64,000 bases of DNA from a virus (IMGVR_UViG_3300030104_007872:14085-78084), one strand, 5' to 3'; counted from the stretch's first letter, positions 357-17,874 are shown. Notes: generated by a model from the letters alone, not told the origin. A program made the numbers and translations.

Positions 357-553
357 AGGATAGTGATTTCCTTGACCCCAAAAGAAGATCTTTCCCAGTG
401 TTGTCAGCTAGAGATGTAAAAAACGCTGTTAGTAGCTGGGGTCGATATGAGGGGTCAATGACTTTTGAAGAGTTTAAAAGCAAACTTATACGAAGGGCTA
501 AAAAAATAGGAGCAGAAAGTGCTCTACCCAAAAGCTGGATGGACAAAAAATAA
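338..553 (+). CDS. Unannotated -1-frame extension (KKRSELKDSDFLDPKRRSFPVLSARDVKNAVSSWGRY...ALPKSWMDKK), DUF6582-like phage domain
   Basis: Frame opens right after TAA 335-337, inside the A9 run 336-344, and ends at TAA 551-553, which overlaps the ATG of the next gene (TAATG). It has no plausible start codon at its 5' end. Confidence 0.7.
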   Translation, partial: KKRSELKDSDFLDPKRRSFPVLSARDVKNAVSSWGRYEGSMTFEEFKSKLIRRAKKIGAESALPKSWMDKK

Positions 554-2040: not shown

Positions 2041-2073
2041 ACAATCACTTTAATTTAACACAAACATAATATT

Positions 2074-2703
2074 ATGGCTCTTCGAATTTTACCATTCAGA
2101 CAATATGACGACAATGATGTCGTGAACCTCTATGCGATGGAAAACGCTGGGGTGAACGATGCCACTACGGATGCGGGCTCTGGCGATGCTGGAGTTTTCG
2201 TAAACATTCTTGACGGCGACTTCAATAAAGATCCTGTAACATACCAAACGAACTCTTATCTGGGTGACTCCAGCTTTCCGTATCTTGGTTCTACAGAGAT
2301 GTATCCTGAAGTTAACCTCAAAGTTACTCCAGCAGCTTCAGGAACACATCCTCTTGGACTTACCCTGCTTCAGACTGCAAAGAACGACGAAAACGGAGAA
2401 AAACTTCTCTATAACCCAACCAAAGCTACTGAGCTTCAAGCCCTACTTCCAGGGCAAGCAGTTCCAGTTGCCACCAAGGGTATCTTTACTCTTGCAACTG
2501 AGGCTTTTGAAGGCGCAGCTAATCTCTACACCATCGGATCAGGAGTAAGAATTTCTGATCAGGGTGGAGGAAAAATCACTGGCTGTCACCATCACCACCA
2601 CGGACATATTGGCCATGTTCTTGGAACTGGTTCGCGGACCTCTGAGGGGCCAACCACGGATCAATTCGCTGGAGATTATCTAGTTATTGGTTTAAAAATC
2701 TAA
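2074..2703 (+). CDS. Putative capsid decoration/cement protein with a His-rich loop
   Basis: 209 aa, Gly/Thr/Asp-rich beta-type protein between scaffold and capsid genes; contains CHHHHHGHIGH. Confidence 0.55.
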   Translation: MALRILPFRQYDDNDVVNLYAMENAGVNDATTDAGSGDAGVFVNILDGDFNKDPVTYQTNSYLGDSSFPYLGSTEMYPEVNLKVTPAASGTHPLGLTLLQTAKNDENGEKLLYNPTKATELQALLPGQAVPVATKGIFTLATEAFEGAANLYTIGSGVRISDQGGGKITGCHHHHHGHIGHVLGTGSRTSEGPTTDQFAGDYLVIGLKI

Positions 2704-2735
2704 TTCAACTCTTCCTTAAGAAAGGCTCAATCAAA

Positions 2736-3875
2736 ATGAAAATTACTTTAAAAAGAACTCCAGAACAAGTCGAGCTTATCAAAGCTATGGCTTCACGCAA
2801 CCGTAATGTTGCGTATGAGGCGCAGGTTGCACTTGCTGAATTTATCGGACCCGTGTTGGCCGAGGTTCTCAATCAAGCTCCAACAGTGAGCAATCTGTTC
2901 CAGTCTCTTCAATTCAATGCAGACGACAACCCAAGCATTCCGCTGGATCTCTACTACAACATTTCCGATGAGGATTATGTTAACGTATGGAGCCAGAGTC
3001 ACGCTGGCGGTCTTCCTCAGAACCAAGTCCTTCCGACTGCTTCTGAGTTGAAGCTTGCTACTTACAGCCTTGACGCTGCGGTAAGCTTTGATCGTCGCTA
3101 TGCGGCCAAAAGCCGTATGGATGTAGTCAGCAAGACATTCACTCGTGTTGCACAAGAGATTCTCCTCAAGCAGGAGAGGACTTCCGCAACATTGCTGATG
3201 ACTGCTCTCGCTAACGCTTCAACAACAGTTAATTCTATCGCTCACAAGCACGTTCAACTCTCAAATGTTAACGACCGCTTTGTGTTGGCCGACCTGAATG
3301 AATTGCTTACTCTTGCCAAGAGGATTAACACCTCATGGGTTGGCGGAACGCCAACCGAGCGCAGGAAGGGTATTACCGACCTGATCGTTTCTCCTGAAGT
3401 TGTTCAGGAGCTTCGCGCAATGGCCTACAATCCTATCAACACCGCAGCCGCCCCAATGGCATCTGCTCTTAAGGATAGTATTCCAGCTACCGATGAAATC
3501 AGAAATGCCGTTTATAATAACGCAGGTCTTCCTGAGTTTTACGGTGTTTCCATCATGGAAATCAACGAGTTGGGAACTGGTCAAAAGTTCAACACGATCT
3601 TTGATACTGCCGCTGGCAGCACTGAGTATTCGGCTGCTGATGGCGCTCGTAAGTCCCAGTTTACTGGAGCTACGAATCAAATCCTCGTGGGTGTGGATCG
3701 CACACGCGACTCCCTCATCCGTGCAGTAGCAACCGATGCTGAGAATGGCAGTGAGATGAATCTCATCGCTGACGACCAGTATAGTATTCGCCAAAATAAG
3801 ATTGGCTACTTCGGTTCCATGGAAGAAGGCCGTGTGGTTCTTGATAACCGCGCCCTTGTTGGTAAGATCGTATAA
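2736..3875 (+). CDS. Major capsid protein (HK97 fold)
   Basis: 379 aa, follows protease-scaffold and decoration genes, and is followed by a strong terminator. Segments such as DLIVSPE and PEFYGVSIME resemble HK97-fold P/A-domain motifs. Confidence 0.8.
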   Translation: MKITLKRTPEQVELIKAMASRNRNVAYEAQVALAEFIGPVLAEVLNQAPTVSNLFQSLQFNADDNPSIPLDLYYNISDEDYVNVWSQSHAGGLPQNQVLPTASELKLATYSLDAAVSFDRRYAAKSRMDVVSKTFTRVAQEILLKQERTSATLLMTALANASTTVNSIAHKHVQLSNVNDRFVLADLNELLTLAKRINTSWVGGTPTERRKGITDLIVSPEVVQELRAMAYNPINTAAAPMASALKDSIPATDEIRNAVYNNAGLPEFYGVSIMEINELGTGQKFNTIFDTAAGSTEYSAADGARKSQFTGATNQILVGVDRTRDSLIRAVATDAENGSEMNLIADDQYSIRQNKIGYFGSMEEGRVVLDNRALVGKIV

Positions 3876-3897
3876 TCAATCTAACCTACCCCACAAG

Positions 3898-3931
3898 AGG
3901 GTCGCTCCGAAAGGAGCGGCCCTTTTTTTTT
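3898..3931 (+). terminator. Intrinsic terminator after the major capsid gene
   Basis: AGGGTCGCTCC-GAAA-GGAGCGGCCCT stem-loop followed by a T tract. Confidence 0.9.
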
Positions 3932-3963
3932 GTAATTTACTTTTCCTGTGTATATAATAGTAT

Positions 3964-4434
3964 ATGGCAAAGAAAAAGACAGGTAAGAAAAAGACCGCTA
4001 AAAGCAAGGGTGAGCTTCCTTTTGAGGAGGTAACCACGGGCCAAGAACAACCCAAGAAAAAGGGTATCTTGGAAGAAATTGAGGAAATGAAGGCTAGCGG
4101 TAACACAAAGAGCGAGGAATTCAAAAACAAGATAAAGGAGCTAGAGGTTATCTTGGGCGTTGATGAAGTGAATCCGTTTGGCACTAATGAGCTTGACATC
4201 TTCGAAGACAACTTGAGGGAAATGAATGTGACCGACATGATGAGACTTGCTCAAAAAGTTGGCCTCAATCCCCATCAAGAAAGAACTCGACTCAAGAAGA
4301 ATCTCATTAATGAATTTAAGGGTTACAACCGCAATAACCGCAGGAATATCGCGCCAAATATGAGCAAGACTATTGAGCTTGACCCAAACAACCCACAACA
4401 CGCTGAAACTATTAAAATTCTACGAGAATTCTAA
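3964..4434 (+). CDS. Hypothetical phage protein
   Basis: 156-aa ORF with a Lys-rich N-terminus; GTGTAT motif 16 nt upstream. Confidence 0.7.
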   Translation: MAKKKTGKKKTAKSKGELPFEEVTTGQEQPKKKGILEEIEEMKASGNTKSEEFKNKIKELEVILGVDEVNPFGTNELDIFEDNLREMNVTDMMRLAQKVGLNPHQERTRLKKNLINEFKGYNRNNRRNIAPNMSKTIELDPNNPQHAETIKILREF

Positions 4435-4454
4435 TAATTGGTGTAATAGTTGGT

Positions 4455-4940
4455 ATGGCGTTAACTGCATTAGGTGAATTAGCTTCGGGAATTCTAAATA
4501 CTGAATTTGATGATAATACTGGAATCGCTACGACAGGAGCGATTAGTGGATGGCTATTCGAAAACCTTGGGCGATTAAATACTTGGATTTATACTGATTT
4601 CAGCGGACAGGATGCAACTGGCTCTTCAGCAGGAGCATTCAACATTGAGGCGCAGAACATCCATAAAGAATTATATCTTTATCACTACTACAACAAGGAG
4701 GCCAGAAACGCCCTCAGGGGAATCATTCACTCCAATGTGAGTGGAGATAATATTTTATCCTTAAAGGACGGAGAAAGCTCTGTAACGTTCGTTAACAGGA
4801 ATGAGGTGTCCAAAGTCTATAAGGGGCTTGCAAGCGATTCTATGGCGAATGTGGAGCGACTAGCGGCACAATACAACATATATCAGGCTGAGCCTAGACA
4901 ATTAGGTGGCGTTGACGGTGACACGGGCTATCTCTACTGA
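4455..4940 (+). CDS. Putative head-tail adaptor/connector
   Basis: 161-aa helical protein downstream of the capsid gene with a beta-hairpin-like SLKDGESSVTF; GTGTAA at 4441. Confidence 0.5.
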   Translation: MALTALGELASGILNTEFDDNTGIATTGAISGWLFENLGRLNTWIYTDFSGQDATGSSAGAFNIEAQNIHKELYLYHYYNKEARNALRGIIHSNVSGDNILSLKDGESSVTFVNRNEVSKVYKGLASDSMANVERLAAQYNIYQAEPRQLGGVDGDTGYLY

Positions 4941-5260
4941 GAGGTGGACTTATGACCGTTATACAACTTTTCCATGATTTTCTCCACGTCGAGTTCCAGC
5001 ATCGAAATTTTTAAATTTTGTTTTACGTCGTCTGGGAGGCTTCCACTCCCCCATTTGCCCGCAGGCCAATCGCGTACAAAAATTGCGTGTTTCTCGACAT
5101 CCTTTCCAATCATTTGGATTTGGAAATCGTTATGCTGAACTGAGCTTTGCAAGTTCGATGCCCACCAAACAATACCCGCAGCCTGAACGGCTAGACCAAT
5201 TCCAAGAGAGATGAAGAACTTGCTGTCTACGGCGCGTTCTTTCCTTGCGTTATGGCTCAT
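4934..5260 (-). CDS. Small membrane-anchored coiled-coil protein
   Basis: Hydrophobic segment FFISLGIGLAVQAAGIVWWA followed by a heptad region. Confidence 0.6.
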   Translation of the reverse strand: MSHNARKERAVDSKFFISLGIGLAVQAAGIVWWASNLQSSVQHNDFQIQMIGKDVEKHAIFVRDWPAGKWGSGSLPDDVKQNLKISMLELDVEKIMEKLYNGHKSTSQ

Positions 5261-5263
5261 GGC

Positions 5264-5488
5264 TTAGCCCTGTATGCCATCAAATAGTCGGGCAGCTTCA
5301 CTCACAAGTCTCATCTTGCTTTCGTATGGTAAGCCTAGATCGGAGGCATATTTTTTAGCCTCAGCGTCATTCATAGCGAGTATTTTATACTTGAGACTCT
5401 TAGTTCCCTTTATATCGCCCCAATCTATACCTGTATTAACTTTCTTAGGTTTTTCCTTTTGAACGGGTTTCTTATCTTCGTCATTCAT
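5264..5488 (-). CDS. Hypothetical protein (start revised to MNDEDKK at 5488)
   Basis: The longer ORF call runs through a terminator; a GTGTAA motif (5500-5505, minus strand) lies 17 nt upstream of ATG 5488. Confidence 0.6.
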   Translation of the reverse strand: MNDEDKKPVQKEKPKKVNTGIDWGDIKGTKSLKYKILAMNDAEAKKYASDLGLPYESKMRLVSEAARLFDGIQG

Positions 5489-5505
5489 AACATTTACTAT
5501 TACAC

Positions 5506-5535
5506 AAAAAACCCCGCTTGTGCAGCGGGGTTTTT
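5506..5535 (-). terminator. Intrinsic (potentially bidirectional) terminator after the tail tube gene
   Basis: A6-CCCCGCT-TGTGC-AGCGGGG-T5. Confidence 0.85.
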
Positions 5536-5563
5536 CATTTTTTGGTTGATTTAACAAGGACTA

Positions 5564-6781
5564 TTAATCCATTCCGCCAGCATCAGTATCGTAGGTATTG
5601 ACCGCAAGAGGATATATTGGCTGATTGCCTGACAAAACTCCCGTATATACTGTGCAGAAAATACCGTGGTCGGTATCGGCAACACCACCGATTTGAGTTG
5701 TAAATGTCAGATCCACCGACTTGTTAGCTCCTATGCTTGAAGAGGTGTTCTGACTGTCCATTGTGCAGTTCTTAAGAAGAAACTCATATGCGTTCGTGTC
5801 ATCCGCCCTGTTTATTTGCAGCGTTACATCCTTCTCCAAGTTCTTGTCAATGATGTCGGCAAGCACGAAAGCATTTTCGTCGTTTACGAGAGCACTCACG
5901 GAAAGTGATGCCACAATTGGGAAATCCACAGTTCTTGCATATGCGAACCTGCTCCCAAGTCTGTCGAGAGGCGTTCTGGAAAGTGGAACTGACAGAGAGG
6001 CGCTTTGAATGTGCGCTCCAGTCGCGCCTCCAAGTGCAATGTTGGTTGACTCTTGGGCTCCTTGCAACTCAAGAGTAATATCTCCTGGGCGTAGGGCCAG
6101 AGTTTGAGCATCGGTCACTTTCCTATCCGCAGCCGAAGGCGCTCCACTTTGGGCGTAAGGAACTTGACACAGCGCATCATATGATGTCCCCTCCTCTTGG
6201 TTCACACCTGGACTATCTATGCTCATATAACCACCCGTGGCTACTGAGTCTACATTGACATCCGAAATTACGTTAGATCCCTCACAGGTTACAGAAACAG
6301 TTGGAATCGAGCCCACAGAACAATCAAATGTATAGTCGCTGACATACATGTTGCCAAGACCAAGGAATGTTCCAGTTTTCTTATCGGCGGCATCCTGACC
6401 TTCATTAACCGTAAGGATAAAGAAGTTAGAGCCTGAAGTTGCTGTTTGGTGACCAGAAGTGAAACTACCACTCATGTTAGCAGTGGAAGCGGAGCCTGCA
6501 TTATTTTTGCCAGTAATGACATAAAAGTTTAAAGCCTTTTCATTAAAACCATCTGTTGGATAATAAGTGAAATCCAAGCTAACGGTGGGCGCGTCAATAA
6601 CCTCCGTACCGATACGGGCCAGTTCGCCATATTGGTTAACGTCTGTGCGAGAAAGGTTAAAGCCATAGTTGGCGCTTTGAACCCTCTGTAGTTGAACGTG
6701 GTCGCCACTTGTTGTGGACGCTGCATTAAAACTACAGTAGAGGGCTTCGGACTGGTAAATTACTCTGTTTCTTGATGCCAT
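5564..6781 (-). CDS. Major tail (tube) protein with an internally duplicated tube domain
   Basis: 405 aa, Ser/Thr/Gly-rich beta protein. Its two halves share motifs (RVQSANYGFNLSRTDVNQYG / HIQSASLSVPLSRTPLDRLG). It has its own promoter-like element and terminator. Confidence 0.7.
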   Translation of the reverse strand: MASRNRVIYQSEALYCSFNAASTTSGDHVQLQRVQSANYGFNLSRTDVNQYGELARIGTEVIDAPTVSLDFTYYPTDGFNEKALNFYVITGKNNAGSASTANMSGSFTSGHQTATSGSNFFILTVNEGQDAADKKTGTFLGLGNMYVSDYTFDCSVGSIPTVSVTCEGSNVISDVNVDSVATGGYMSIDSPGVNQEEGTSYDALCQVPYAQSGAPSAADRKVTDAQTLALRPGDITLELQGAQESTNIALGGATGAHIQSASLSVPLSRTPLDRLGSRFAYARTVDFPIVASLSVSALVNDENAFVLADIIDKNLEKDVTLQINRADDTNAYEFLLKNCTMDSQNTSSSIGANKSVDLTFTTQIGGVADTDHGIFCTVYTGVLSGNQPIYPLAVNTYDTDAGGMD

Positions 6782-6803
6782 AATAAAAAGATCTTTATTT
6801 TGT

Positions 6804-6832
6804 TTACAGTTTAATCGTTAAAATATGAAATT
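6804..6832 (-). promoter_or_regulatory. Putative late promoter AATTTCA-N17-TGTAA for the tail tube gene
   Basis: Minus strand reads AATTTCA TATTT TAACGATT AAAC TGTAA, matching 1320-1348. Confidence 0.55.
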
Positions 6833-6837
6833 CAGTA

Positions 6838-7692
6838 TTAGTTTTCAAAGCGATATCTGTGTTGTTGTATGTCGAAATCTATGAAGCCAACATAAAGATC
6901 GTTAGCCAAGCTTTTCCGAACTCTATCGCTTAACTTAGAGGTCTTAGCGCTTTCCACATAAAACATTGTGTTGCCCCCTTGAAATTCGTTTTTTAGCCCC
7001 GTATAATTATAGCTGCCATCTTTTAAATCACCTAATTCTGTTATGGGGTATCCAGTAAACGGGATGTTGCCTATAACCTCATCCACAGAATCCGCAAAAA
7101 TAGATAGCACCCCATCTAGTTGGTAGGGGTCTTCAGCAAGAACCACCGCTTTAACCATAACCTCAGTTTGTTGCAGGCCACCAAATGCATAAGGCTTATT
7201 TTGAGTGTCCGCTGCGGCAAGAAAAATAGCGGGAACCACATCATCATAAGGCGCGATGTAATCATAATTTGCTGATGGTAGTCTGGAATTAACCTTATAT
7301 TTATTTTCTACCACCAAATCCTCCTCGGTATCATTGGTGAAATAGATGTTAAAATCCTTAACTGCAAAACTACCAGTTACCGCCGCACCTGTGGGCGCCC
7401 CAGATGCCAACACTCTCCCATTATCAAAATCTAATACAACGCCATCGTTTCTACCCGAAAATCCACCATTAATGAAAACGCCAGTGGGAATGTTTGCCCC
7501 TGTTATTGAAGAGTCTGCAACCCATTGTTTATATGGACTTCCAAAAACCGTGTAGGTTGAATCTATTCGGGGGTCGTCGTAGTAAAAAAAATCTCCCGTT
7601 TTATCTGAATAAGCCTCACCTTTGGTGGTGAGAAAATTATCAAACCACAAAAAGAAAGAGGTTGTTAATCTATGTTGGAACTGTTCAATCAT
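6838..7692 (-). CDS. Putative tail terminator/neck protein
   Basis: Directly upstream of the tube gene in the same operon; VPAIF...PYAFGG motif; assignment mainly positional. Confidence 0.45.
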   Translation of the reverse strand: MIEQFQHRLTTSFFLWFDNFLTTKGEAYSDKTGDFFYYDDPRIDSTYTVFGSPYKQWVADSSITGANIPTGVFINGGFSGRNDGVVLDFDNGRVLASGAPTGAAVTGSFAVKDFNIYFTNDTEEDLVVENKYKVNSRLPSANYDYIAPYDDVVPAIFLAAADTQNKPYAFGGLQQTEVMVKAVVLAEDPYQLDGVLSIFADSVDEVIGNIPFTGYPITELGDLKDGSYNYTGLKNEFQGGNTMFYVESAKTSKLSDRVRKSLANDLYVGFIDFDIQQHRYRFEN

Positions 7693-8270
7693 TTGAGTTC
7701 TTCGAAACGTTGAGTGTATTTCTTAATAAGCGCGGAAATGTAAGGAGTGTTGCTAAATCTTCCACCCCTTACCTTTACACGGCTTTGAATCGCTGCGCCC
7801 GATCTACCTTTATTTTTTCGCAAAAGGTAGCCCAATCCCGAAATCCCGCGCTCTATTCCTTGAGCCCAACTTCTTCCAAATGCCCAAGGCAACGGCGTAA
7901 TGGCAAAGATATCTTCAGCAGTTGGTATACTAACCTGAAAGTTGTTGCCTATTCCTCCTTGTGTAATTGGCGCTATATATCTAATCTCTGTTGCTTCAAG
8001 GAGTGAAAGTATCGGCATTATGGGTTCGTCGCCACTATCAAAACCAATAAAAGCAAATAAGTTGGTTACCCCATTCAGGGTTCCGCTGATATTTGTTCCA
8101 CTAGGGCCGCTTTTGATTTCTTGCGTCACAGGATGACCTAAGAATTCAGCTATCATCTCCTTTTTAATTCTTTTAAATTTTTCAGAGATCTCTTTTTCAA
8201 AGGGTTTTCTTAAAAGCTTGGGTGTTTGCCGCTTTAGAGCCCTTCTAACGTCTTGTGGTAATGTGGCCAT
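7689..8270 (-). CDS. Putative tail completion/neck protein (HK97 gp10-like position)
   Basis: Basic 193-aa protein, translationally coupled within the neck block. Confidence 0.4.
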   Translation of the reverse strand: MATLPQDVRRALKRQTPKLLRKPFEKEISEKFKRIKKEMIAEFLGHPVTQEIKSGPSGTNISGTLNGVTNLFAFIGFDSGDEPIMPILSLLEATEIRYIAPITQGGIGNNFQVSIPTAEDIFAITPLPWAFGRSWAQGIERGISGLGYLLRKNKGRSGAAIQSRVKVRGGRFSNTPYISALIKKYTQRFEELK

Positions 8271-8734
8271 TAATCGTCGATGGGGGTAAGCAGGAACGTA
8301 AAAAATTGATTATCAAACAAACCCGAGGGATTGCCATCGCTTTTTATTGAAAATTTTCGCCCGTCGAATTCGACCCTTCGAGCTTCCCTGATGTAATCAT
8401 AAGCGCTTTCCTGCACTACAATTTTTACAGAACCAGCAGGAAGAATAATCTTGTTTTGTGAACCGCCCTGTTCCCCTGGGTCTGAAATATACTCTTTTTC
8501 TAAATCCTGATAATATATTCTAGCGGTAAAACTGCTAGATACCGTTGAGTATTCCACTGAGGTATTTGATCCTGTATTAGTGCGCTTATACAGGGCGTTC
8601 CATGATGGTGTTGAAGCTATTAAGGTTTTTTTAGCATTTTTATAAACTGTAATACTTTGTGCAAACGTGTCGTGTAAAATTGTAGCCAAATCCTTAATTT
8701 TGGTTACTTGTTCTGGTTTTAAAAATCCCGCCAT
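8270..8734 (-). CDS. Putative head-closure (stopper) protein
   Basis: 154-aa beta-rich protein with C-terminal RVEFDGRKFSI, resembling SPP1 gp16-like stoppers; GTGTAA 14 nt upstream. Confidence 0.5.
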   Translation of the reverse strand: MAGFLKPEQVTKIKDLATILHDTFAQSITVYKNAKKTLIASTPSWNALYKRTNTGSNTSVEYSTVSSSFTARIYYQDLEKEYISDPGEQGGSQNKIILPAGSVKIVVQESAYDYIREARRVEFDGRKFSIKSDGNPSGLFDNQFFTFLLTPIDD

Positions 8735-8779
8735 ATTGATTTTTACACTTTTATTTATATAATAAGATAGGATTAAGGC

Positions 8780-9070
8780 ATGGATGCGAAAAAAAAATTA
8801 ATTAAGGGCTCTGAAAAAGAAGTCTCTGGACTCTTTAAAATGATGTTAATGATGGTCGAAGACATGAAAAAAGACCACGATTTTCATTATGATAAGCTTT
8901 ATGAGAATATCCCTAAGGAACACCACCCAATAATTAATGCGGCTAATCACTTTACCCCCGAAAAGGTAGCTTGGATTCGCAAGAGAATTTTGGATTTTGG
9001 AAACGAATCAATTAGAAATATAGGCTCTGAGTTTGATAATTATAAGGTAAGCTTCATATTTAAAAATTAA
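8780..9070 (+). CDS. Hypothetical protein
   Basis: 96-aa ORF divergent from the neck block. Confidence 0.65.
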   Translation: MDAKKKLIKGSEKEVSGLFKMMLMMVEDMKKDHDFHYDKLYENIPKEHHPIINAANHFTPEKVAWIRKRILDFGNESIRNIGSEFDNYKVSFIFKN

Positions 9071-9082
9071 AGGAATAAGGTT

Positions 9083-9838
9083 ATGGCTTTTAAGGAATTA
9101 TATTCATTTACTATAGATCAGGAAAAAGAGATTGAAAAAACTCACACGCGAACAAATAAAAAAACAGGCGAAGAAACAAAGGTAACCAAAAAGGTTAAGG
9201 AGAAGGTTCCAATCACTGTTAAGCTGAAAAGGCCGTCGCGAAGAGAGTTGGAAGATGCGGAATTAGAATATTCCGTAGAAATGAGCCGCTGTGTTAAAAG
9301 GGGTATTTTAACCAAGGCGATGCTCTATAAGAAATACAGTGATACGGGAGGCGTGTTCAGCGAGGAAGATGCAAAGGATTATGGAAAACTGTATAAGGAT
9401 ATTTTGAATTTGCAGAATGAGTATATCCGCTTGGATTCTGTTGATAAAAAATCTGAAAAACAGAAAAAACGTTTAGAGGAAATAAAGGATGAGCTAGCTG
9501 AAACCAAACGGAAAATGGTTGAAGTTGAATCTAATATGCAGTCCCTCTTCGATCATACGGCAGACAATAAGGCTCAGAATCGACTTTTGCTTTGGTATAC
9601 TTTGATGTTAACTCACATTCAAGGAGAGGAGGACGAAAGTGCAATTCCATACTTTAATGGTGACACTTTTGAGGAAAAGATCGAGGACTATTACCTTAAA
9701 GAGGATGAAAGTTCAGAGTTCTATGGGGAAGTAGTTAAAAAGATAACGACTATTTTAGCTTTTTGGTTCTTTAATCAAGCTTCAAGTCCAGAGGAGTTCA
9801 ATGATCTTATCGAAAAGATGGAAAAGGGTGAACTTTGA
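9083..9838 (+). CDS. Putative tail assembly chaperone
   Basis: Charged coiled-coil protein two genes upstream of the tape measure gene; positional call. Confidence 0.5.
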   Translation: MAFKELYSFTIDQEKEIEKTHTRTNKKTGEETKVTKKVKEKVPITVKLKRPSRRELEDAELEYSVEMSRCVKRGILTKAMLYKKYSDTGGVFSEEDAKDYGKLYKDILNLQNEYIRLDSVDKKSEKQKKRLEEIKDELAETKRKMVEVESNMQSLFDHTADNKAQNRLLLWYTLMLTHIQGEEDESAIPYFNGDTFEEKIEDYYLKEDESSEFYGEVVKKITTILAFWFFNQASSPEEFNDLIEKMEKGEL

Positions 9839-10818
9839 GTGAAGAGTTTTATATTTCTGTTATTGGTGAGGTATTTGACGGGTGCACAGAAATAAGCATC
9901 AGAGGTGTAAGTGCTTATTTAAAGCATGTCAGTATCAGGGATCAAAGATATATACACAAATACTACGAAAAATATAGGCAAAGGGCGATTGATAAAGGTG
10001 TAGAAACCGAAGCTGATCGCTTGACGTATATAGTCGAGGAAGAATTGTGGCTAGCCGAAGACGATACAAAGATAGCATTGCTAGCCGACGAAATTAAAAA
10101 CTTAGAGAAAACAGTTAAGAGTTTAAACCTGCCTTCTCAAAAGGAACAGGTGCAGGTTACGCTGCGAGAGAGGCGCGAGGAATGGCTGGGCTTGCACCAG
10201 CAAAGAAAAGAGGCGGTCGGAAAAACCGCTGAAGATTACGCCACAAATAGGGCGTCTGACGAATTGCTGAGATTTGTTTTGTTTAAAGATGAAGATTTAA
10301 CGGAACATTTTTATACAGAAGAAGAATTTGAAAATTTGGAGAGTTGGGAAATCTTAAAAATTGGTAAAAAGCAGGAAGAGGTAGCAAAACGCTTTGATGA
10401 GCTAACTTTACAAAAGGCAGTTTTGCGTCCGTTTTTTAGTATGTACCTATCTTTGTGTGAAGATGTTGGTATTTTTTATAGAAAACCCGTAACTCATTTA
10501 TCGATTTATCAATTAAAGGTGGCGCTTTTTGGCAGAATGTTTTTTAACGTTTTTCAATACACTGATGATATTCCCGATCATATCAAAGATGATCCCGAAA
10601 AGCTGTTGGCTTATGCGGACGCACAAAAGAAGGGTGATGCCGACTTGGGAATTGATCAAAATGCGGATGCAAGTGCGGTATTCGGAGCGACCAAGCAAGA
10701 CATGAAGAGTCTTGGTTTAGAAAGCCAGTCAAACGTTTCTTTGCGAGATGAAGCTCAAAAACATGGCGGTAGACTAGATATGAAACAAATGATGCGATTA
10801 GCTGGGCATGATGTGTAA
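9835..10818 (+). CDS. Putative second tail assembly chaperone
   Basis: TTG start overlapping the upstream stop; coiled-coil; immediately precedes the tape measure gene. Confidence 0.5.
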   Translation: MSEEFYISVIGEVFDGCTEISIRGVSAYLKHVSIRDQRYIHKYYEKYRQRAIDKGVETEADRLTYIVEEELWLAEDDTKIALLADEIKNLEKTVKSLNLPSQKEQVQVTLRERREEWLGLHQQRKEAVGKTAEDYATNRASDELLRFVLFKDEDLTEHFYTEEEFENLESWEILKIGKKQEEVAKRFDELTLQKAVLRPFFSMYLSLCEDVGIFYRKPVTHLSIYQLKVALFGRMFFNVFQYTDDIPDHIKDDPEKLLAYADAQKKGDADLGIDQNADASAVFGATKQDMKSLGLESQSNVSLRDEAQKHGGRLDMKQMMRLAGHDV

Positions 10819-10851: not shown

Positions 10852-13800
10852 ATGCCAGTTAGAATACCAGTAACAGAAACAGGATTAGAGGCCAGTATAT
10901 TAGAGGCTACCCGTAGGGCTGGCGCTAAAGCGGGAAAAAATTTAAAAATAAATCTGGGGACTAACCCCAAAAGTATAGAGGCTCTTTCGCAACCACTAGG
11001 GCGTATTACTGGAAAAGCCGACGAATTTACCAAGTCAATGGAGGCGGCTAACGCTCGTGTGTTGGCATTCGGTGCATCCGTTGGGGTTCTGAGTGCGGTA
11101 ACCAAAGGCTTTAAGGATTTAGTTACGGTTACAATTGAAGTTGAAAAGCAATTAACTTCAATTAACACCATTGTTGGGGGCACTGCTGCTGAATTATCTA
11201 AGTTCAAAAAAGAAATCTTTGATGTTGCTCGGGAGACCGAGCAATCGTTCGATACTGTGGCCGAGGCCGCTCTTGAATTAAGTCGTCAAGGTCTCAGCGC
11301 TGAGGATGTCCTTAAGAGATTGGGTGATTCTATGATCCTAACTCGACTGTCTGGCTTGGGTGCTGGCGAGGCTGTGGCAGGACTAACTGCGGCAATCAAC
11401 TCTTTTACTAAAGCTGGGGTTACAAGCGAAGAGGTGTTGAATAAGCTTTCTGCGGCAGCGGTTTCCGCAGCGGTTTCCGAAAGAGATTTGATTGAAGGTA
11501 TTAAGCGTTCGGGCGCTGTTGCGGTTCAGGCGGGCGTTAGTCTAGATGAGCTTATTGGTGTAATTTCCGCAGTTCAACAAAGAACAGCGCGGGGTGGTTC
11601 AGTTATCGGTAACTCCTTCAAGACTATTTTTACGAGAATCCAGAGTTTGGATAAGCTGGAGACGATGCAGAATCTTGGGGTGCAGGTTACAGATCTTCAA
11701 GGGGATGTTTTACCTGCTATTCAGCTTATTAAAAATTTAGCAGGAGCTTTAAATGCTTTACCTGAAGCCAAGCAACTTCAAATTGCAGAAAAATTAGTTG
11801 GTAAATTTCAAATTGCACCTTTTTTGGCTATTTTAGAAGATTATAATTCTGAAGCTCAGATAGCTATAGAGGTTACTAAAGTTGCACAAAACGCTACTAC
11901 AGAAGCTTATCAACGAAATGTTGCTCTTAACAAAACTTTGTCAGCAGCAATTAATGAGGCGACAATTAATCTAAAGGAGTTAGCCAACACATTGGGTGAA
12001 ATTGGTGTAACCGACAGCCTGAAAAATATTCTTGGCTTTTTTAACACTTTGGTAAGTAAAATCCAAGATGTTATGGAGGGCGAAGGTCTTGGAAGCGATT
12101 TTGCAAGAGCGATAGTCAAGGGCATCAGTAATGTTATTAGCGGACCTGGGTTAGCGATCTTTGGAGCCATCATTGCTAAATTAACAATTGATTTAGCTAA
12201 GTTTGGAACGAAGGCTCTTACTACATTCTTTGGCATGAATAGTGCCGCCAAGCAAATTGCGACTACGCAAGGAGCAATAGCGTCAACTCTTTTAAGTAAT
12301 CAGGAAATTCAAAAACGAATTTTAAGTATAGAAAATTCTACTCTTAGTGTTGAGCAAAAGAGGAAGGCCCAGATGGACTTTTTCACAACGGCCTTAAACG
12401 CTCAATATGCTACCATGCAAAAAATGCAGACTATTGCGGGTCGCATAGCTCCTGGGGTAGTCAAAGGAACATCTGGCGGTGGTCGAGGTGCAGGAGGATT
12501 TGTTCCAAATTTCGATGCCGTGAGGGGTTATGGCCCACAACGAGGCATGATTCCAAATTTCGATGCGGTGAGAGGTTACGCTCAAGAGAATGCTGATATT
12601 AGTCGCGGCGTAGGTGGAGCACCCGCTTCGGCTAGACCCGTAGCTATTCCTAATTTTAATTTTGGTCAAGGACAGAGAGGCACAATGATCGCCAACACCA
12701 GTGAGGTGATGGTTCCAAATTATGCTGGCGGGGGATCTGCCATCTTTAATCGCGACATGATAGGGGCGGCAGGGATGCCGCGTGGCGCTCGCTCAATTAC
12801 AGGTGCTAGCGGATATATACCGAATTTCCAGAGGGGACTTAAAAAAGATCAGGCTGGCTTCGAACATTCTTTTAGAAATGCGAGCATATCCAACTTAGAT
12901 AAGACTATTGCCAACAGTAAGAATGCTGCCGCCGTTGCCGCAGCCAAGGCTGTCAAGGACAAGAGACAGGGTAAGAAGGCTGGGGTCATAAGCTTTAATG
13001 CCAAAGACTATGGGGTCGCTGCGATGTTTGCTGGCAAGGGTTCCGCAGTTAGGTCGGTTAACCAACAACTAGACACGCTCATAAAGTCGGGGGGAGAAGC
13101 GGCGCTCAGGGCGAGTCAGCTAAAAAAGATGGGCGCGACAGCTATTAATTATTCTGGCGTTCAAGTGCAAGACTTGGAGTCCATGAAAAACCGCAAGCGC
13201 GGGAAAATTAATGAACCGAGTAACCGAAGGGCGCTGTCGCGTTTTTTCCTTAAGCCTCTTCAGCGTTATGGTAACTTTATGACCGATACCATATTTGATG
13301 GTAACGAATTAGCTCAAATTCAAAATCAAAACAGAAAATTTGTTAGCGGTCCAGATATTTTTTCGAGTTCAGTAGAGGGTGGTCTTTTCGAGGCTGCAAT
13401 TAGGCTTGTCACTAAAGGCGCGAAAGCCAGTAGGGCTTTTAAATCCCATAGCGATTCCCAAGCTGCATTTGATTTTGAGGAGACATCACCTCCACAACAG
13501 GGCTTTAAAGACGCTTTTGGTTTTGGCAGAAATCTTAGGAGGGCTGACGCAAAGAGAACTGCGGACGCAGACTCAGTAAGAACACTTATAAGCAAGACTT
13601 TAAGAACTGATGACGGGTTTCAAGCTATGAAATCCGCCGCAAGGAGACAGGGCTTCAAGGGTGCTGCTTCTGGTTATATTCCAAATTTCGCTTCACCGCT
13701 TCAAGATGCCATTGCAAGAGAAATGTCTGCTGGCATACCAATTAATCAAGTAAGGATCAATCAAGATGGTGGTCTTCGTAATGCTGGAAACCCAATGGGT

Positions 13801-16800
13801 CTGGCGGTGACTAATATTCGGGATGAGCCTACGGGGGCTATTCCAAGGGGAGCGGGGGGTTTTGTTCCAAATTATAATATTGGTATGGGGCTGCGCCCCC
13901 CAGCGGCTGCTGCTGGTGGTGCTGGCCCTCAGAGTTTGGGGGCAAGAGCCTTAGACAAAAGCCTGAAGGGTTTGTCGGCATCAGTAAGAGCAACAGGTAA
14001 GGGCATTGTCGCCTTGGGTGGCTCGGCGGGACTGGGAATTGAAAAGCTTTTTGCTCTTCAGATTGGCATGACCGCTCTAACAGGCATGACTTCCGAAGCG
14101 GAGAGTGGTATGGGTAAATTTGCTCACGGTTTGAGTAGCGCGTTAAACGCGGTCGTTATGACCAGTTTTGCAATGCAAGGTCTTCAGGGTTTTGCGAAAG
14201 AGGGGAGTGCGGCGGCTGGTGTACTGGGTAAGTTGGGTGTAGCAGCCGTTGGAGCAACTGTAGCGTTTCAGGTTTTTAAGGGCTTAAAGTCTATATTTAA
14301 TGAGGTCACAGGAGTAAATAAGTCTGCTAACGTGCAGATAGCATTATTGGCGGATGCCGCCAAAGATGCAAGCTTAAGTCTTGCAGGCTTAACCGCTGTG
14401 CAACAAAATGAGCTAAAGGAGGAGGCTAAGGAAATTTTTGAGGCGAGGGGCGGCGAAGGTAGATTTAAGTTCAGGGGTTTTCAAGGAGACGACGAAGAGA
14501 TTGAGCAACGATTTGGAGAAGCTATTGCTTTCGCTCGGCAAGGCGGCACGGGTAGGGCAGAGATAAATAGGCTCATAACAGAAATGTTTGAGATCACATC
14601 GGGCACCAGAATAATAGTGGATGAGTTTGAGGGGATCATAGACGCGAGTACAGTTACCAATGAGGTAATTGAAAGAACTTTAGCTAAAATACTAGACTCA
14701 GGAAGGGATACCGCAGAGCGAATTGACAGAATTCTTAGTGGCGTTGGCGAACGGGAGCGTGGAATTTTAGGCAGGCCACGACCAGATCAATCCACGCCAA
14801 CAATCTTTGGTTTACCCGTTCTGTCACCACAACAGATTGGTGGGGAGCTACAAAGAAGGGCTGTACGGGATGAATTGAAAAAGGAGCTAATGCTTAGGGC
14901 CAAGATAGATGACGTAACCGCAGAGCAGAAAGTTAGGGAATTCGAGATGGCTCAGGTTATTGCTGAAAAAAATAACAATCTGGAAAAGGAAGCTAATGTT
15001 AGACGCATGGCCGCGAATGAAGCCAAGCAGATCTTGGACATTGAAATTAAAATGGCTCAAATTCAAGTCGAAAACAAAGCGGCCATTAAGGATGTGCAAG
15101 ACCAAAGAAAAATCATCATGGGTCTTTCAGATGCCGAAATCGCGAATATGCGAGAACAAAAGGGGCTGCGTGATATTGAAGTAGCTGCACATAAAAATAT
15201 TCTCAGCTTAATAAAGGATGAGGTTGGAAACATAGAAGAATTAACACTTGAGCAAAGAGAACAGCAAATAGTAGCACAAGCACTGGCTGGTCTTGATAGG
15301 AAACAGCTTCAAGATAAGGAGGCAATCAAATCCGTCTTGATTAACACTATTGATCTTCAAGGCAAGGAGGGTGATGCTTTAAGAATAGCAGAAGCATTAG
15401 CAAATGGAAAATTAGATGCGGTCTTTAGAGAGATGGAGTTAAGAAAGCGTGGTCTTGTCGATTTGGAAAAAGAACGAAGGGAAAACGAACAAATTACCAG
15501 AAGTATTAAAGAGCGTTTGGAGTTCGCTAAACTTGCGGCGGGGGGCCAGAGATTTGAGACTGAACTGGGCACTCGCCAGAGAAGGACTGAGTTAGGTCTC
15601 CAACGAGAGAGAATTCAGGAAAGCACTATGAGGGACGCCCAAAAGAATCGAGCCCTAGCGGAAATAGCCAATGAACTTGCCGAACTTGATTTGACTGATG
15701 CCAAGGCTCAAGCCATTGAAAAAACCACGACGAGCGTAGAGGAGCTTATTTCAAAAATCCCCAGTCTTGAATCTGCTCTTAGACCCTTGTTGAATATGCT
15801 TGCTGACCCCGTTCAAGGTGGAACTGGAGCGCAGATTTCTGAAGTGGGAGAGGGAGTAAGGAAAGCTGTCGCTGCGAGCGGTGGAGTTGGGGCGCAATTT
15901 ATGAGTCCCATTGTTCAGGAAGTCGTCGGGGTTGGGTTGTCTTCTGAAATGAAACTGGCGGCTGCTGCAACTGCTCAAGAAACAGAGGAAACGGGTAAAT
16001 TGACTCAGGCGAAGGAGGCCGAGACAAAAGCCACAAATGACCAAAGAACTACATTGGCAGGCGTTAATAAAGCTCTTATTAGTTTAAGAAGAAATTTAAT
16101 CGGTGCTACTGACGCTGGCTCCATAGTCTCAGCAATCAGGGACGAACAAAAAGAATTAAGAACTGGCGCAAGAGGAGTAACTGACATTAGCGAATCTGGC
16201 ATAGAGTTTGATTTCGCTAAACAGAAAATACTTGATCAACAATTTTTAGCTCAGACACAAGCCGAATCCAATCAACTCGGTAGGCAGTTGGACTTCTTAG
16301 ATCGAATGAGAGACGTTAAGGCGGCGATGTTGAGGGGTGACATCAATCGTGAGGAAGCTGCTCGGAAAATTTTACAAATTGAAAAGGAAAGGTTGGCTGT
16401 AAACAGCACCCTTGCCAACAGATGGAAGGATACTTTTGACACTAGTGCTGCCGAAAGACAAAGACAAATAACCAACGCTTGGGTTTCAGGTGCAAAACAA
16501 TTTGCAGATGCCATTGGCAACGGTTTGGTGGATGCCATTGCGAAGGGTGAATCGTTAGGCGATTCGCTTCGTAATGCCGCTGCAAGTTTTGCAGATATGA
16601 TGGCGCGAGCCTACATGCAACAGGCGGCAAATCGAATAGTTGGTAATGTTGGTGGCGGCATGATAAGTGGCGGTGGCGGTGGAGGCGGCATTGGCGGCGG
16701 CGGCATTTTGAGGGGCATTGGTAATTTCATTGGCGGGCTTTTCCAAAGCGGTGGAATGGTTAGGGGTGGCTCTGGAACCAAAGATGATGTGCCTGCCGTC

Positions 16801-17874
16801 TTGACGGGTGGCGAATTTGTAATGAGGAGAGGTGCCGTTAGCAAATACGGCGCTCCTTTTATGGAGGCTTTAAACGCAGGAGCGGTTACAGGCTTTCAGT
16901 ATGGCGGAAGAGTTCAGAGGGGTAATAATTTATTTACTCCAAGTAAGAGCCGTGGATCAATAGTTGGGTCTAGTAATTTACTAAGATTTGCAACTCAGGG
17001 CTTCACTAGTGGCGCCTCAGATGTAATTGTTGGAGGCTCTGGTGTGGCGGGTATTGGCTTGGAAGCTGAAAGTGTCCGCTTAACAAATCGTGGCAGAATG
17101 CTTGGTCCTCGTGCTGAGAGATTAAGGGAATCCAAACAAACCGCTTTTGGTTTAGTTGGTGAGCAGGAGGGCATAATGGCCAATTATAGGGAAAAGCTTT
17201 TACAGCAAAAACTTGCCAAAAAAGAAGAAAAGAAAAGGAAGAAGGAGCAGGAAGCTCAAGAAAAATATCAGAGAGAATTAGAAAAATTTCGAAGAGCAGA
17301 ACAAAGAAGACAGGAGAAACGCTCTATGTGGACTAGTCTGGCTATAATTGCGGGCGGCGCTCTTTTAGGTGGAGGATTTGGTGGTTACTCAAGTCAAGTT
17401 GGTGCCGCATATGGAGGAACCGCAAACATGACCGTTGCAGGAAGCATGGCGGATAGAAGCTTCGCTAACACAGGTGGTGGACTTTTTCCCCGTGCCGCAG
17501 GGGGATATGTTCCCCGTGCCGCAGGTGTAGATACGGTTCCATCAATGTTGTCGGGTGGCGAATTTGTGATGAATGCTGGAGCCACACAGCGTTTGGGTTC
17601 AGCTAATCTAAATGCTCTGAATTCAGGCGGGGGCTCTTTAGGAGGCTCTCCAGATATAGTCGCTAAGCTAGATGAACTTATTACCGTAACCAGCGAGGGT
17701 CATGGAGACATAAATATTGTGGTTAACTCAGATGGAGGTGGGCAAGTGCAAGGGGGAGCCGCTCCAGAAGCTGCGGCCTCAGCCCAGCGCCAATTAGCTG
17801 AATCGCTCAAACAAGCGGTGGTGAAAGAGATTGAAAACCAGAAAAGACTTGGGGGCGCCCTTAGAAGAAGATAA
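10852..17874 (+). CDS. Tail tape measure protein, 2340 aa, with embedded repeat-bounded modules
   Basis: N-terminal TP901-type TMP region (ELSRQG, GNSFKTIFTRI), long Ala/Gly-rich and coiled-coil regions, and C-terminal GGxV...D(D/T)VP...GGEFVM repeats. Confidence 0.9.
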   Translation: MPVRIPVTETGLEASILEATRRAGAKAGKNLKINLGTNPKSIEALSQPLGRITGKADEFTKSMEAANARVLAFGASVGVLSAVTKGFKDLVTVTIEVEKQLTSINTIVGGTAAELSKFKKEIFDVARETEQSFDTVAEAALELSRQGLSAEDVLKRLGDSMILTRLSGLGAGEAVAGLTAAINSFTKAGVTSEEVLNKLSAAAVSAAVSERDLIEGIKRSGAVAVQAGVSLDELIGVISAVQQRTARGGSVIGNSFKTIFTRIQSLDKLETMQNLGVQVTDLQGDVLPAIQLIKNLAGALNALPEAKQLQIAEKLVGKFQIAPFLAILEDYNSEAQIAIEVTKVAQNATTEAYQRNVALNKTLSAAINEATINLKELANTLGEIGVTDSLKNILGFFNTLVSKIQDVMEGEGLGSDFARAIVKGISNVISGPGLAIFGAIIAKLTIDLAKFGTKALTTFFGMNSAAKQIATTQGAIASTLLSNQEIQKRILSIENSTLSVEQKRKAQMDFFTTALNAQYATMQKMQTIAGRIAPGVVKGTSGGGRGAGGFVPNFDAVRGYGPQRGMIPNFDAVRGYAQENADISRGVGGAPASARPVAIPNFNFGQGQRGTMIANTSEVMVPNYAGGGSAIFNRDMIGAAGMPRGARSITGASGYIPNFQRGLKKDQAGFEHSFRNASISNLDKTIANSKNAAAVAAAKAVKDKRQGKKAGVISFNAKDYGVAAMFAGKGSAVRSVNQQLDTLIKSGGEAALRASQLKKMGATAINYSGVQVQDLESMKNRKRGKINEPSNRRALSRFFLKPLQRYGNFMTDTIFDGNELAQIQNQNRKFVSGPDIFSSSVEGGLFEAAIRLVTKGAKASRAFKSHSDSQAAFDFEETSPPQQGFKDAFGFGRNLRRADAKRTADADSVRTLISKTLRTDDGFQAMKSAARRQGFKGAASGYIPNFASPLQDAIAREMSAGIPINQVRINQDGGLRNAGNPMGLAVTNIRDEPTGAIPRGAGGFVPNYNIGMGLRPPAAAAGGAGPQSLGARALDKSLKGLSASVRATGKGIVALGGSAGLGIEKLFALQIGMTALTGMTSEAESGMGKFAHGLSSALNAVVMTSFAMQGLQGFAKEGSAAAGVLGKLGVAAVGATVAFQVFKGLKSIFNEVTGVNKSANVQIALLADAAKDASLSLAGLTAVQQNELKEEAKEIFEARGGEGRFKFRGFQGDDEEIEQRFGEAIAFARQGGTGRAEINRLITEMFEITSGTRIIVDEFEGIIDASTVTNEVIERTLAKILDSGRDTAERIDRILSGVGERERGILGRPRPDQSTPTIFGLPVLSPQQIGGELQRRAVRDELKKELMLRAKIDDVTAEQKVREFEMAQVIAEKNNNLEKEANVRRMAANEAKQILDIEIKMAQIQVENKAAIKDVQDQRKIIMGLSDAEIANMREQKGLRDIEVAAHKNILSLIKDEVGNIEELTLEQREQQIVAQALAGLDRKQLQDKEAIKSVLINTIDLQGKEGDALRIAEALANGKLDAVFREMELRKRGLVDLEKERRENEQITRSIKERLEFAKLAAGGQRFETELGTRQRRTELGLQRERIQESTMRDAQKNRALAEIANELAELDLTDAKAQAIEKTTTSVEELISKIPSLESALRPLLNMLADPVQGGTGAQISEVGEGVRKAVAASGGVGAQFMSPIVQEVVGVGLSSEMKLAAAATAQETEETGKLTQAKEAETKATNDQRTTLAGVNKALISLRRNLIGATDAGSIVSAIRDEQKELRTGARGVTDISESGIEFDFAKQKILDQQFLAQTQAESNQLGRQLDFLDRMRDVKAAMLRGDINREEAARKILQIEKERLAVNSTLANRWKDTFDTSAAERQRQITNAWVSGAKQFADAIGNGLVDAIAKGESLGDSLRNAAASFADMMARAYMQQAANRIVGNVGGGMISGGGGGGGIGGGGILRGIGNFIGGLFQSGGMVRGGSGTKDDVPAVLTGGEFVMRRGAVSKYGAPFMEALNAGAVTGFQYGGRVQRGNNLFTPSKSRGSIVGSSNLLRFATQGFTSGASDVIVGGSGVAGIGLEAESVRLTNRGRMLGPRAERLRESKQTAFGLVGEQEGIMANYREKLLQQKLAKKEEKKRKKEQEAQEKYQRELEKFRRAEQRRQEKRSMWTSLAIIAGGALLGGGFGGYSSQVGAAYGGTANMTVAGSMADRSFANTGGGLFPRAAGGYVPRAAGVDTVPSMLSGGEFVMNAGATQRLGSANLNALNSGGGSLGGSPDIVAKLDELITVTSEGHGDINIVVNSDGGGQVQGGAAPEAAASAQRQLAESLKQAVVKEIENQKRLGGALRRR
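12503..12580 (+). repeat. In-frame 48-nt-period tandem duplication (PNFDAVRGY x2)
   Basis: TTCCAAATTTCGATGC-GTGAG-GGTTA at 12503 and 12551. Confidence 0.85.
17486..17525 (+). repeat. In-frame 24-nt-period tandem duplication (PRAAG x2)
   Basis: Exact TTCCCCGTGCCGCAGG at 17486 and 17510. Confidence 0.85.

Follow-up and report, generated by a model that had tools for sequence, protein, structure and literature searches.

We analyzed a 64,000-nucleotide (nt) stretch of DNA from an uncultured marine phage (IMGVR_UViG_3300030104_007872:14085-78084; hereafter the window) that encodes a tail tape measure protein (TMP) containing repeated copies of a short linker peptide, which we refer to as the PNF motif. 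These linkers border segments of the TMP that related marine phages very probably exchange as modular cassettes, with the recombination junctions falling at the linkers themselves. TMPs are usually treated as rulers, sometimes with a cell-wall hydrolase; comparisons of near-identical phages in this family provide direct sequence evidence for the exchange of whole domains between linkers. One linker-bounded segment, at amino acids (aa) 660-937, occurs in every TMP of the family, is hypervariable, and displays conserved residues that suggest a catalytic or metal-binding site.

A repeated linker peptide in the tape measure protein

The TMP gene (10852..17874; this and all other window features below with a stated role in the TMP lie on the + strand) is the longest of the tail module, a single 7,023-nt open reading frame (ORF) encoding 2340 aa. 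A PhageMin_Tail domain (PF10145) is found at aa 124-317 (11221..11802; E = 2e-28; bit score 100, cut-off 33), the product matches six PHROG families of the class "tail length tape measure protein" at E-values of 3e-40 to 2e-20, and ORFs downstream match phrog_290 and phrog_14 (minor tail protein), with an additional match to PF05939 that falls below its cut-off. Both its N-terminal domain and its gene context thus identify the product as a tail TMP, as proposed in an initial annotation made from the sequence alone. A word-indexed search with aa 530-1020 as query returned 827 homologues at E <= 0.001 among 8000 scored candidates; nearly all are PF10145 proteins of 2000-2700 aa from ENA, JGI and Tara marine metagenomes, and none carries an informative name. 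At E-values up to 1, Pfam detected PF10145 alone across the whole TMP, with no recognizable peptidoglycan hydrolase domain and no match at all in the slot between PNF motifs 5 and 6, and NCBIfam gave no match.

The sequence [VILM]PN[FY] occurs seven times in the TMP, always within aa 546-1008 and nowhere else in the protein, compared with a mean of 0.024 and a maximum of 2 in 5000 shuffled versions. The longer form G[FYHM][VILM]PN[FY] is absent from the other ORFs of the 78-kb record to which the window belongs. Motif 1, GAGGFVPNF (aa 546-554, 12487..12513), keeps its position in homologues, and a repeat search identified motif 2, RGMIPNF (aa 564-570, 12541..12561), as its tandem duplicate. 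Motifs 3 and 4, (VA)IPNF (aa 599-602, 12646..12657) and (VM)VPNY (aa 621-624, 12712..12723), are invariant in alignment A4. Motif 5, GASGYIPNF (aa 651-659, 12802..12828), and motif 6, AASGYIPNF (aa 938-946, 13663..13689), form the left and right borders of the variable module and coincide with the left and right recombination junctions in relatives. The position of motif 7, GAGGFVPNY (aa 1000-1008, 13849..13875), is likewise conserved. Between motifs 6 and 7 lies a constant module, SPLQDAIARE..NPMGLAVTNIRDEPTGAIP (aa 948-998, 13693..13845), with many invariant columns in alignment A4; it shares 62-85% identity with nearly all close homologues and 43-57% with a few distant ones, placing it among the best conserved parts of the family. 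The initial annotation had named motifs 1, 2, 5, 6 and 7, each where we find it, and had overlooked AIPNF and VMVPNY (motifs 3 and 4), so its list was accurate but incomplete.

The layout of the motifs is itself conserved. Across 121 database proteins and 75 IMG/VR loci, motifs recur near positions 549, 581, 603 and 638, followed by a gap of 205-328 aa and then by two motifs 55-62 aa apart, in agreement with the earlier suggestion that they divide this region into modules. The first motif overlaps a repeat (family D2; 12494..12578) composed of two tandem units 48 nt apart (12494-12530 and 12542-12578; 84% identical), each encoding xxPNFDAVRGY. This corresponds to the 48-nt duplication that the initial annotation placed at 12503/12551 and took as a sign that the motif is still being copied. 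That suggestion holds up among close relatives (P0003, P0004, P0005, P0063 and L001), in which motif 1 is present in one to three tandem copies, a range that fits recent duplication.

Inside the PNF motifs, codon third positions vary like those in the rest of the gene. Because this variation matches the background, the motif is conserved as a peptide and not as DNA, and the same observation ruled out a DNA-level recombination site as the explanation for its recurrence. In the AlphaFold model that includes them, both PNF motifs flanking the variable module are coil with a predicted local distance difference test (pLDDT) score of ~50. Conceivable roles for the linker peptide are those of hinge, strand clasp, cleavage site, or docking site within the tube or on the chaperone.

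A second repeated motif is found toward the C-terminus of the TMP, where D(D/T)VP(A/S)xL(T/S)GGEFVM... occurs twice (16783-16824 and 17530-17571; repeat family D5, 75% identical as DNA); both copies match phrog_35029 and phrog_13338. A glycine run, GGGGGGGIGGGG (16669-16704, aa 1940-1951), lies just upstream of the first copy. The stretch following PNF motif 4, VPNYAGGGSAIFNRDM, resembles a degenerate copy of this C-terminal motif, and because of that resemblance the PNF linker may derive from what is a common TMP C-terminal motif.

Exchange of modules at the linkers

The slot between motifs 5 and 6 is occupied by very different sequences in different relatives. In the 121 database TMPs the slot sequences form seven BLAST clusters, which we number as types, the window carrying type 0. 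TMPs with other slot types match the window's TMP at 69-79% identity in the N-terminus and at 59-85% in the PNF flanks, as close as the nearest type-0 proteins, and their slots give no BLAST match to it; many type-0 proteins are far more distant in the N-terminus (42-66%). A tree built from the first 520 aa requires 16 changes of slot type, against a minimum of 6. Judged from these sequences, module type disagrees with the phylogeny of the flanks.

The junctions of this exchange could be located in closely related pairs. Two proteins, P0028 and P0079, are identical over their first 520 aa and differ in slot type: identity is 100% up to ...GAAGGFIPNFA, falls below 30% across the slot, and is again ~100% from AGG(F/Y)IPNFA onward. 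Five further protein pairs display the same loss and return of identity at PNF motifs. Breakpoints in DNA from IMG/VR loci fall at the same places. In L036 and L038, the 1500 nt preceding the slot are 99.7% identical, and the similarity stops inside the codons for GYIPNF. L053 and L055 share 98.7% identity across the 6,890 nt that lead up to a motif, diverge into 2,068 and 1,267 nt of different modules, respectively, and regain identity (95.6%) ~9 nt before the next motif. A complementary case is provided by L055 and L079, whose flanks are only 68% identical yet whose common P-loop module is 95% identical, its ends coinciding with motifs. In every one of the at least eight independent pairs examined, the junctions lie on PNF motifs.

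Short conserved motifs thus flank the variable segments, and crossovers fall in or next to those motifs, as is characteristic of a motif-delimited cassette. From these comparisons, relatives very probably exchange whole module alleles or multi-module blocks through crossovers on the codons of the flanking linkers, keeping both reading frame and domain borders. The crossovers probably either use the ~14 fixed bases of the motif as microhomology or are retained by selection that preserves frame and domain borders. In this respect the initial annotation, which had proposed an exchangeable cassette with junctions at the motifs, is borne out by near-identical flanks joined to different modules and by breakpoints at PNF motifs in both protein and DNA.

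We considered whether ordinary TMP mosaicism and fast drift might produce the same pattern, with the PNF motifs as conserved ends of a structural unit, the junctions arising from constrained flanks, and the conserved residues of the slot (described below) coinciding by chance. The remainder of these TMPs offers some precedent, since aa 1011-1950 are also mosaic and poorly conserved, and the background-like third positions of the motif speak for the absence of a DNA-level site. Drift cannot, however, generate flanks that are 98.7-99.7% identical over 1.5-6.9 kb beside unalignable inserts of differing length and module number, and it does not account for junctions on motifs in all of the independent pairs. 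For the recombination part this explanation already looks refuted, and taken as a whole we judge it very improbable.

Protein-level exchange at short motifs has a counterpart in the T-even adhesin gp38, for which Trojet et al. (2011; PMC3157838, with Tetart 1998 as cited there) describe hypervariable segments between conserved glycine-rich motifs and recombination in or near the motifs. In both systems, short motifs conserved in the protein delimit variable segments, and crossovers at the motifs shuffle these segments between phages. The units differ: gp38 shuffles receptor-binding loops of 10-30 residues in the tip of a tail fiber, whereas here whole domains of 90-330 residues are exchanged inside a TMP.

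The variable module and its possible activity

The variable module of the window (aa 660-937, 278 aa; 12829..13662; sequence type 0 of at least seven) is non-repetitive and basic, with a pI of 10.4 and 49 K+R against 26 D+E, in keeping with how the segment had been described initially. AlphaFold predicts an alpha/beta domain. A first model reached a pLDDT of 78.7, and a second, built with 60 sequences, reached 85.9 with a predicted template modeling (pTM) score of 0.77. The second model opens with five N-terminal strands and then a long helical hairpin; E847 lies on the next helix, D874 in a low-confidence loop and, past a short helix, D899-x-K901 on a strand, with two helices completing the domain. 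The fold comprises six strands plus helices in total. We are confident in assigning the predicted module to an alpha/beta domain and not to the coiled coil or plain helix of a TMP, and this predicted fold argues further against drift as an explanation for the segment.

An exhaustive HMMER search with aa 647-947 against 1.84 billion representatives returned 86 proteins, nearly all matching at aa ~620-950 of long TMPs. Short database matches were considered as stand-alone versions of the domain and rejected: these fragments terminate in PNF motifs or lie within giant TMP ORFs, as does P0189, which falls within a TMP ORF of at least 2930 aa. Because the matches sit in long TMPs and the short ones end in PNF motifs or map in a giant ORF, we conclude that the domain was found only inside TMPs. 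No TMP of the family lacks it.

Within the module, conservation is concentrated at 13378..13557, which encodes GGLFE (13378-13392), FDFEE (13468-13482) and ADAKR (13543-13557). The initial annotation had pointed to this stretch, GGLFEAAI...AAFDF...ADAKR, as following the order E..D..(D/E)xK, and that order is indeed present. The conserved elements are G-x-x-F-E (E847, 13390-13392), F-D-F-E-E (D874, 13471-13473), A-D-A-K (D899, 13546-13548; K901, 13552-13554) and K915; the columns G, F, E, D, F, E, E, D, A and K are invariant or at least 90% conserved in alignments A1, A2 and A3.

The same elements can be followed through all seven slot types, which otherwise share less than 20% identity. In each type, a G-x-(I/L/A)-F-(E/D) helix is followed by h-D-h and, further on, by (D/E)-x-K, with examples such as FDF...DAK; FDY...DAK or EAK; FDV...DFK; IDL...EVK; LDV...DYK or DFK; FDY...DMK; and WDL...DFK. 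The third motif accordingly takes the forms DAK, DFK, DYK, DMK, EVK and EAK. As a regular expression, the E..D..(D/E)xK pattern matches 163 of 169 slot sequences and 2 of 169 shuffled ones, a difference that chance coincidence under drift leaves unexplained. Profile comparison with hhalign linked type A to the merged others (B) at 91.7% (E = 8e-7), in an alignment that superimposed all three motifs, and comparisons among types 1-6 gave 85.8-98.4% for 6 of 15 pairs, sufficient to connect all six. Because the motif order is shared and hhalign links the types, we rejected unrelated enzymes as the occupants of the main slot, which likely holds very divergent alleles of one TMP-restricted domain family. 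The check proposed in the initial annotation, whether different domains occupy the slot, comes out positive as far as exchange goes, in that very divergent alleles replace one another, and negative as regards different enzymes in the main slot.

The order of conserved residues is that of the PD-(D/E)xK superfamily, whose alpha-beta-beta-beta-alpha-beta core has D where strand 2 begins and (D/E)xK on strand 3. The module resembles this superfamily in its predicted order of a helix Glu, an Asp and a (D/E)xK strand followed by a helix, in its basic character, and in the alternation of D and E at the third position; in the AlphaFold models E lies on a helix and DxK on a strand that leads into a helix. 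It differs in that no profile or fold match was obtained, in that the Asp motif is not modeled as a strand, in the helix between Asp and (D/E)xK, and in the N-terminal five-strand subdomain, which has no counterpart in the minimal core. Thus, the motif order and the predicted secondary-structure context of E and DxK fit PD-(D/E)xK, and nothing else does. The superfamily is reportedly diverse and difficult to detect (PMC1913061).

Structure searches with the two AlphaFold models yielded no match to a known fold. In Foldseek searches of PDB and BFVD the best E-values were 0.15-0.84, none above the noise given by helical hairpins, and these searches barely tested the alpha/beta core; VIA-align, in a wide search and a second look, likewise produced no match above helical-hairpin noise, again with the alpha/beta core barely tested. 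No significant family emerged when nine short homologous fragments, the other slot types and the extra modules described below were scanned against Pfam, PHROG and NCBIfam. Because no family, profile or fold search links the module to a nuclease, it is the motif by itself that carries a nuclease reading. The proposal of a nuclease-like segment in the initial annotation is consequently sustained for the conserved E..D..(D/E)xK order and not for a PD-(D/E)xK fold: profile searches, and structure searches that barely tested the alpha/beta core, did not find one, and the models leave the D motif in a low-confidence loop. Its companion question, whether the slot would model as plain helical TMP, is answered by an alpha/beta prediction (pLDDT 86) that, in these same searches, matched neither PD-(D/E)xK nor any other known fold. 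Whether the module contains some catalytic or metal site we regard, from its sequence, as evenly balanced; that it is a true nuclease or phosphodiesterase is a more tentative proposal, possible and on the doubtful side.

These observations can be combined into a model to which we give a little better than even credence overall: a linker-joined chain of modules with a swappable, injected, metal-dependent, enzyme-like member. TMP aa 546-1008 form a chain joined by the peptide G(F/Y)(I/V)PN(F/Y)(A), with four short constant modules and an obligatory but hypervariable module at aa 660-937. That siphoviruses eject their TMP from the tail tube upon infection is established. Under the model, the module may accordingly travel in the tail tube, in a few copies per virion, exit together with the TMP immediately before the DNA, and refold in the host envelope or cytoplasm. 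There it would act as a metal-dependent enzyme, most likely phosphodiesterase- or nuclease-like on nucleic acid, an activity that we propose because of the E-D-(D/E)xK quartet and the basic surface. The diversity and swapping of alleles lead us to propose, in addition, an arms race with host factors that inhibit or recognize the module. TMPs reach the inner membrane, where gpH of lambda was labelled, and the SNIPE defense of the host makes contact with them (PMC13190303).

Several results weigh against this model. Scans of the slot with Pfam, PHROG and NCBIfam identified no nuclease or other family, and searches of PDB sequences with the profile and with single modules returned nothing relevant. 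The Asp of FDFEE is placed in a loop of pLDDT below 50 in both models and not at the start of a strand, a short helix intervenes between the D motif and the DxK strand, and the spacing from D to (D/E)xK, mostly 18-41 residues by regular expression and 25 in the window, is long for the PD-(D/E)xK superfamily. Against single other types, type 0 gave hhalign probabilities of only 4-54%. A nuclease that entered ahead of the phage DNA would need a way of sparing that DNA. Moreover, delivery, refolding, catalysis and the arms race are all steps that we infer for a phage that has no isolate.

Given the extreme divergence of the module and its swapping among near-identical phages, both typical of interaction surfaces, and given that no enzyme family or fold was detected for it, the module might instead be a non-enzymatic partner. 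It could engage a factor of the host envelope or inner membrane at DNA entry, or be a target of host defenses, with the acidic and lysine residues holding a structural metal or salt bridges and with swaps altering host compatibility or allowing escape from recognition. Internal TMP segments are known to set ManYZ dependence and SNIPE susceptibility in lambda and Bas14 (PMC13190303). A quartet of E, D, (D/E) and K that persists through seven types below 20% identity, with alternation of D and E at one position, resembles a catalytic signature more than it does a surface for binding, and other PNF-bracketed modules in relatives display enzyme motifs (Walker A and HExxH). We therefore consider a purely non-enzymatic role unlikely.

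An enzyme acting on the envelope, muralytic or similar, would also be compatible with a helix Glu and a downstream Asp, as in lysozyme-like hydrolases; we take the (I/L)FE helix and acidic motif to recall lysozyme-type active sites loosely. The basic pI would suit anionic envelopes, and one relative, P0109, contains PF01464 (SLT) elsewhere in its TMP. The TMP-embedded enzymes described so far are cell-wall hydrolases, as in mycobacteriophage TM4, whose TMP contains an embedded peptidoglycan-hydrolase (Rpf-like) motif (Piuri and Hatfull 2006, PMC1796659). The parallel with TM4 lies in a functional, non-ruler domain inside a long siphovirus TMP that is delivered at infection, presumably so in the present case. 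Phage T5 pb2 is reportedly similar to TM4 in this regard. In contrast to TM4, the module here has no muralytic signature, belongs to no described family and is obligatory; a repeated linker brackets it, phages exchange it as a cassette, and several such modules are arrayed in relatives. Family searches, and structure searches that barely tested the alpha/beta core, gave no match to a glycoside hydrolase or peptidase family or fold, and an invariant Lys two residues past the second acid is not a lysozyme feature. An envelope-acting enzyme is, in our assessment, improbable.

Stacked modules, wider comparisons and genome context

Beyond the enzyme-like obligatory module that we favor, approximately one-tenth of the TMPs carry further segments bracketed by PNF motifs. 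One is a P-loop module of 153-175 aa with the Walker A sequence GPAGSGKST or APAGAGKT, for which database matches are confined to the P-loop and sub-threshold; versions of 153-157 aa, identified by Walker A, are encoded in IMG/VR loci L055 (7698-8156), L079 (7752-8210) and L074 (6918-7388). Another is a second E-D-ExK module of 174-246 aa (L053 7908-8645; L056 7908-8645; L078 3398-3919; P0118 aa 974-1214), in which G-x-x-(F/Y)-E-K, (V/I)-D-G and L-(L/V)-E-V-K compose a more canonical-looking PD-(D/E)xK pattern. This module has no Pfam, NCBIfam, PHROG or PDB match; we take it to recall small Hjc-type PD-(D/E)xK nucleases. P0118 additionally contains a PNF-bracketed module of 196 aa (aa 1601-1796) with HELGH, a zinc-peptidase-like HExxH motif, for which the sole database hint is Peptidase_M78 at E = 0.2. 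Other bracketed modules, of 86-104 aa and 161-274 aa, are of no kind that we recognized. A more distant TMP of at least 2930 aa, encoded by L082 (3727-12516), contains nine PNF motifs with the same E-D-DxK domain between the first two, indicating that the PNF architecture reaches beyond the close family. These modules support the cargo array pictured in the initial annotation, for the extra PNF-bracketed slots of a minority of relatives, where other kinds of module are found, and not for the slot in the window.

On a broader and, in our view, rather unlikely reading, the TMP of this lineage of marine siphoviruses, a widespread one, could be a polyvalent scaffold for effector delivery, with the linkers serving both as recombination borders and as processing or hinge sites of a plug-in array. 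If this were true, phages would load, swap and stack injected modules of nuclease-like, P-loop NTPase, HExxH peptidase-like and other kinds, constituting a virion-borne analogue of polymorphic toxin systems devoted to host takeover or counter-defense in the first seconds of infection. In polymorphic toxins such as CdiA (VENN) and Rhs (PxxxxDPxGL), a peptide borders the constant delivery scaffold on one hand and a swappable, often nuclease-type payload on the other, and recombination at the border replaces the payload. Both systems pair a conserved border peptide with a swappable, highly diverse module. In polymorphic toxins the payload is C-terminal, serves to kill competitors and comes with an immunity gene, whereas the modules here are internal and flanked on both sides, and no immunity gene is evident, no candidate having been looked for.

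A TMP linker repeat combined with an obligatory hypervariable domain that is confined to TMPs and with optional stacked modules did not turn up in the families, structures and papers that we searched. More than 800 marine TMPs appear to follow this grammar, in which a linker peptide and constant modules accompany a single obligatory, hypervariable domain of catalytic appearance and optional extras. They offer a testable case of domain-level modular evolution inside a virion protein, together with a set of uncharacterized proteins, probably injected along with the DNA, whose candidate functions are host takeover and anti-defense. In laboratory phages, the linkers also suggest themselves as natural sites at which to insert engineered TMP cargo.

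The IMG/VR virus record from which the window comes spans 78,084 bp and is 29% complete according to CheckV; because a 78-kb record receives so low a rating, the full genome may be very large. Among 50,697 records of cultured phages, DNA and protein searches gave no match to the TMP gene or the slot, and no DNA match to the window; similarity to cultured phages is limited to the N-terminal TMP domain and is remote, at ~26% identity to Bacillus and Lactococcus phages. Upstream of the TMP gene, at 553-10818, nearly all head, neck and tail genes are without a Pfam or PHROG match at E <= 0.001, among them the ORFs at 9083-9838 and 9835-10818, where a tail assembly chaperone pair would be expected. 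No tRNA genes were found in the window. It encodes a ribonucleotide reductase, a DnaE-type polymerase, a DnaB helicase, a ClpB-like AAA+ protein and a tail module. The ClpB-like protein, a double AAA+ protein (56705-59131; AAA_2, E = 2e-53), adjoins the DnaE-type Pol III alpha polymerase (54138-56693), and the two are unusual cargo for a siphovirus-like genome. Near the end of the window, 61807-63998 encodes a protein with PSCyt2 (DUF1549) and PSD1 (DUF1553) followed by a DUF1501 protein (E = 8e-38, 7e-25 and 4e-28, respectively); such a PSCyt/DUF1501 pair is typical of Planctomycetota and Verrucomicrobiota and may hint at the host.

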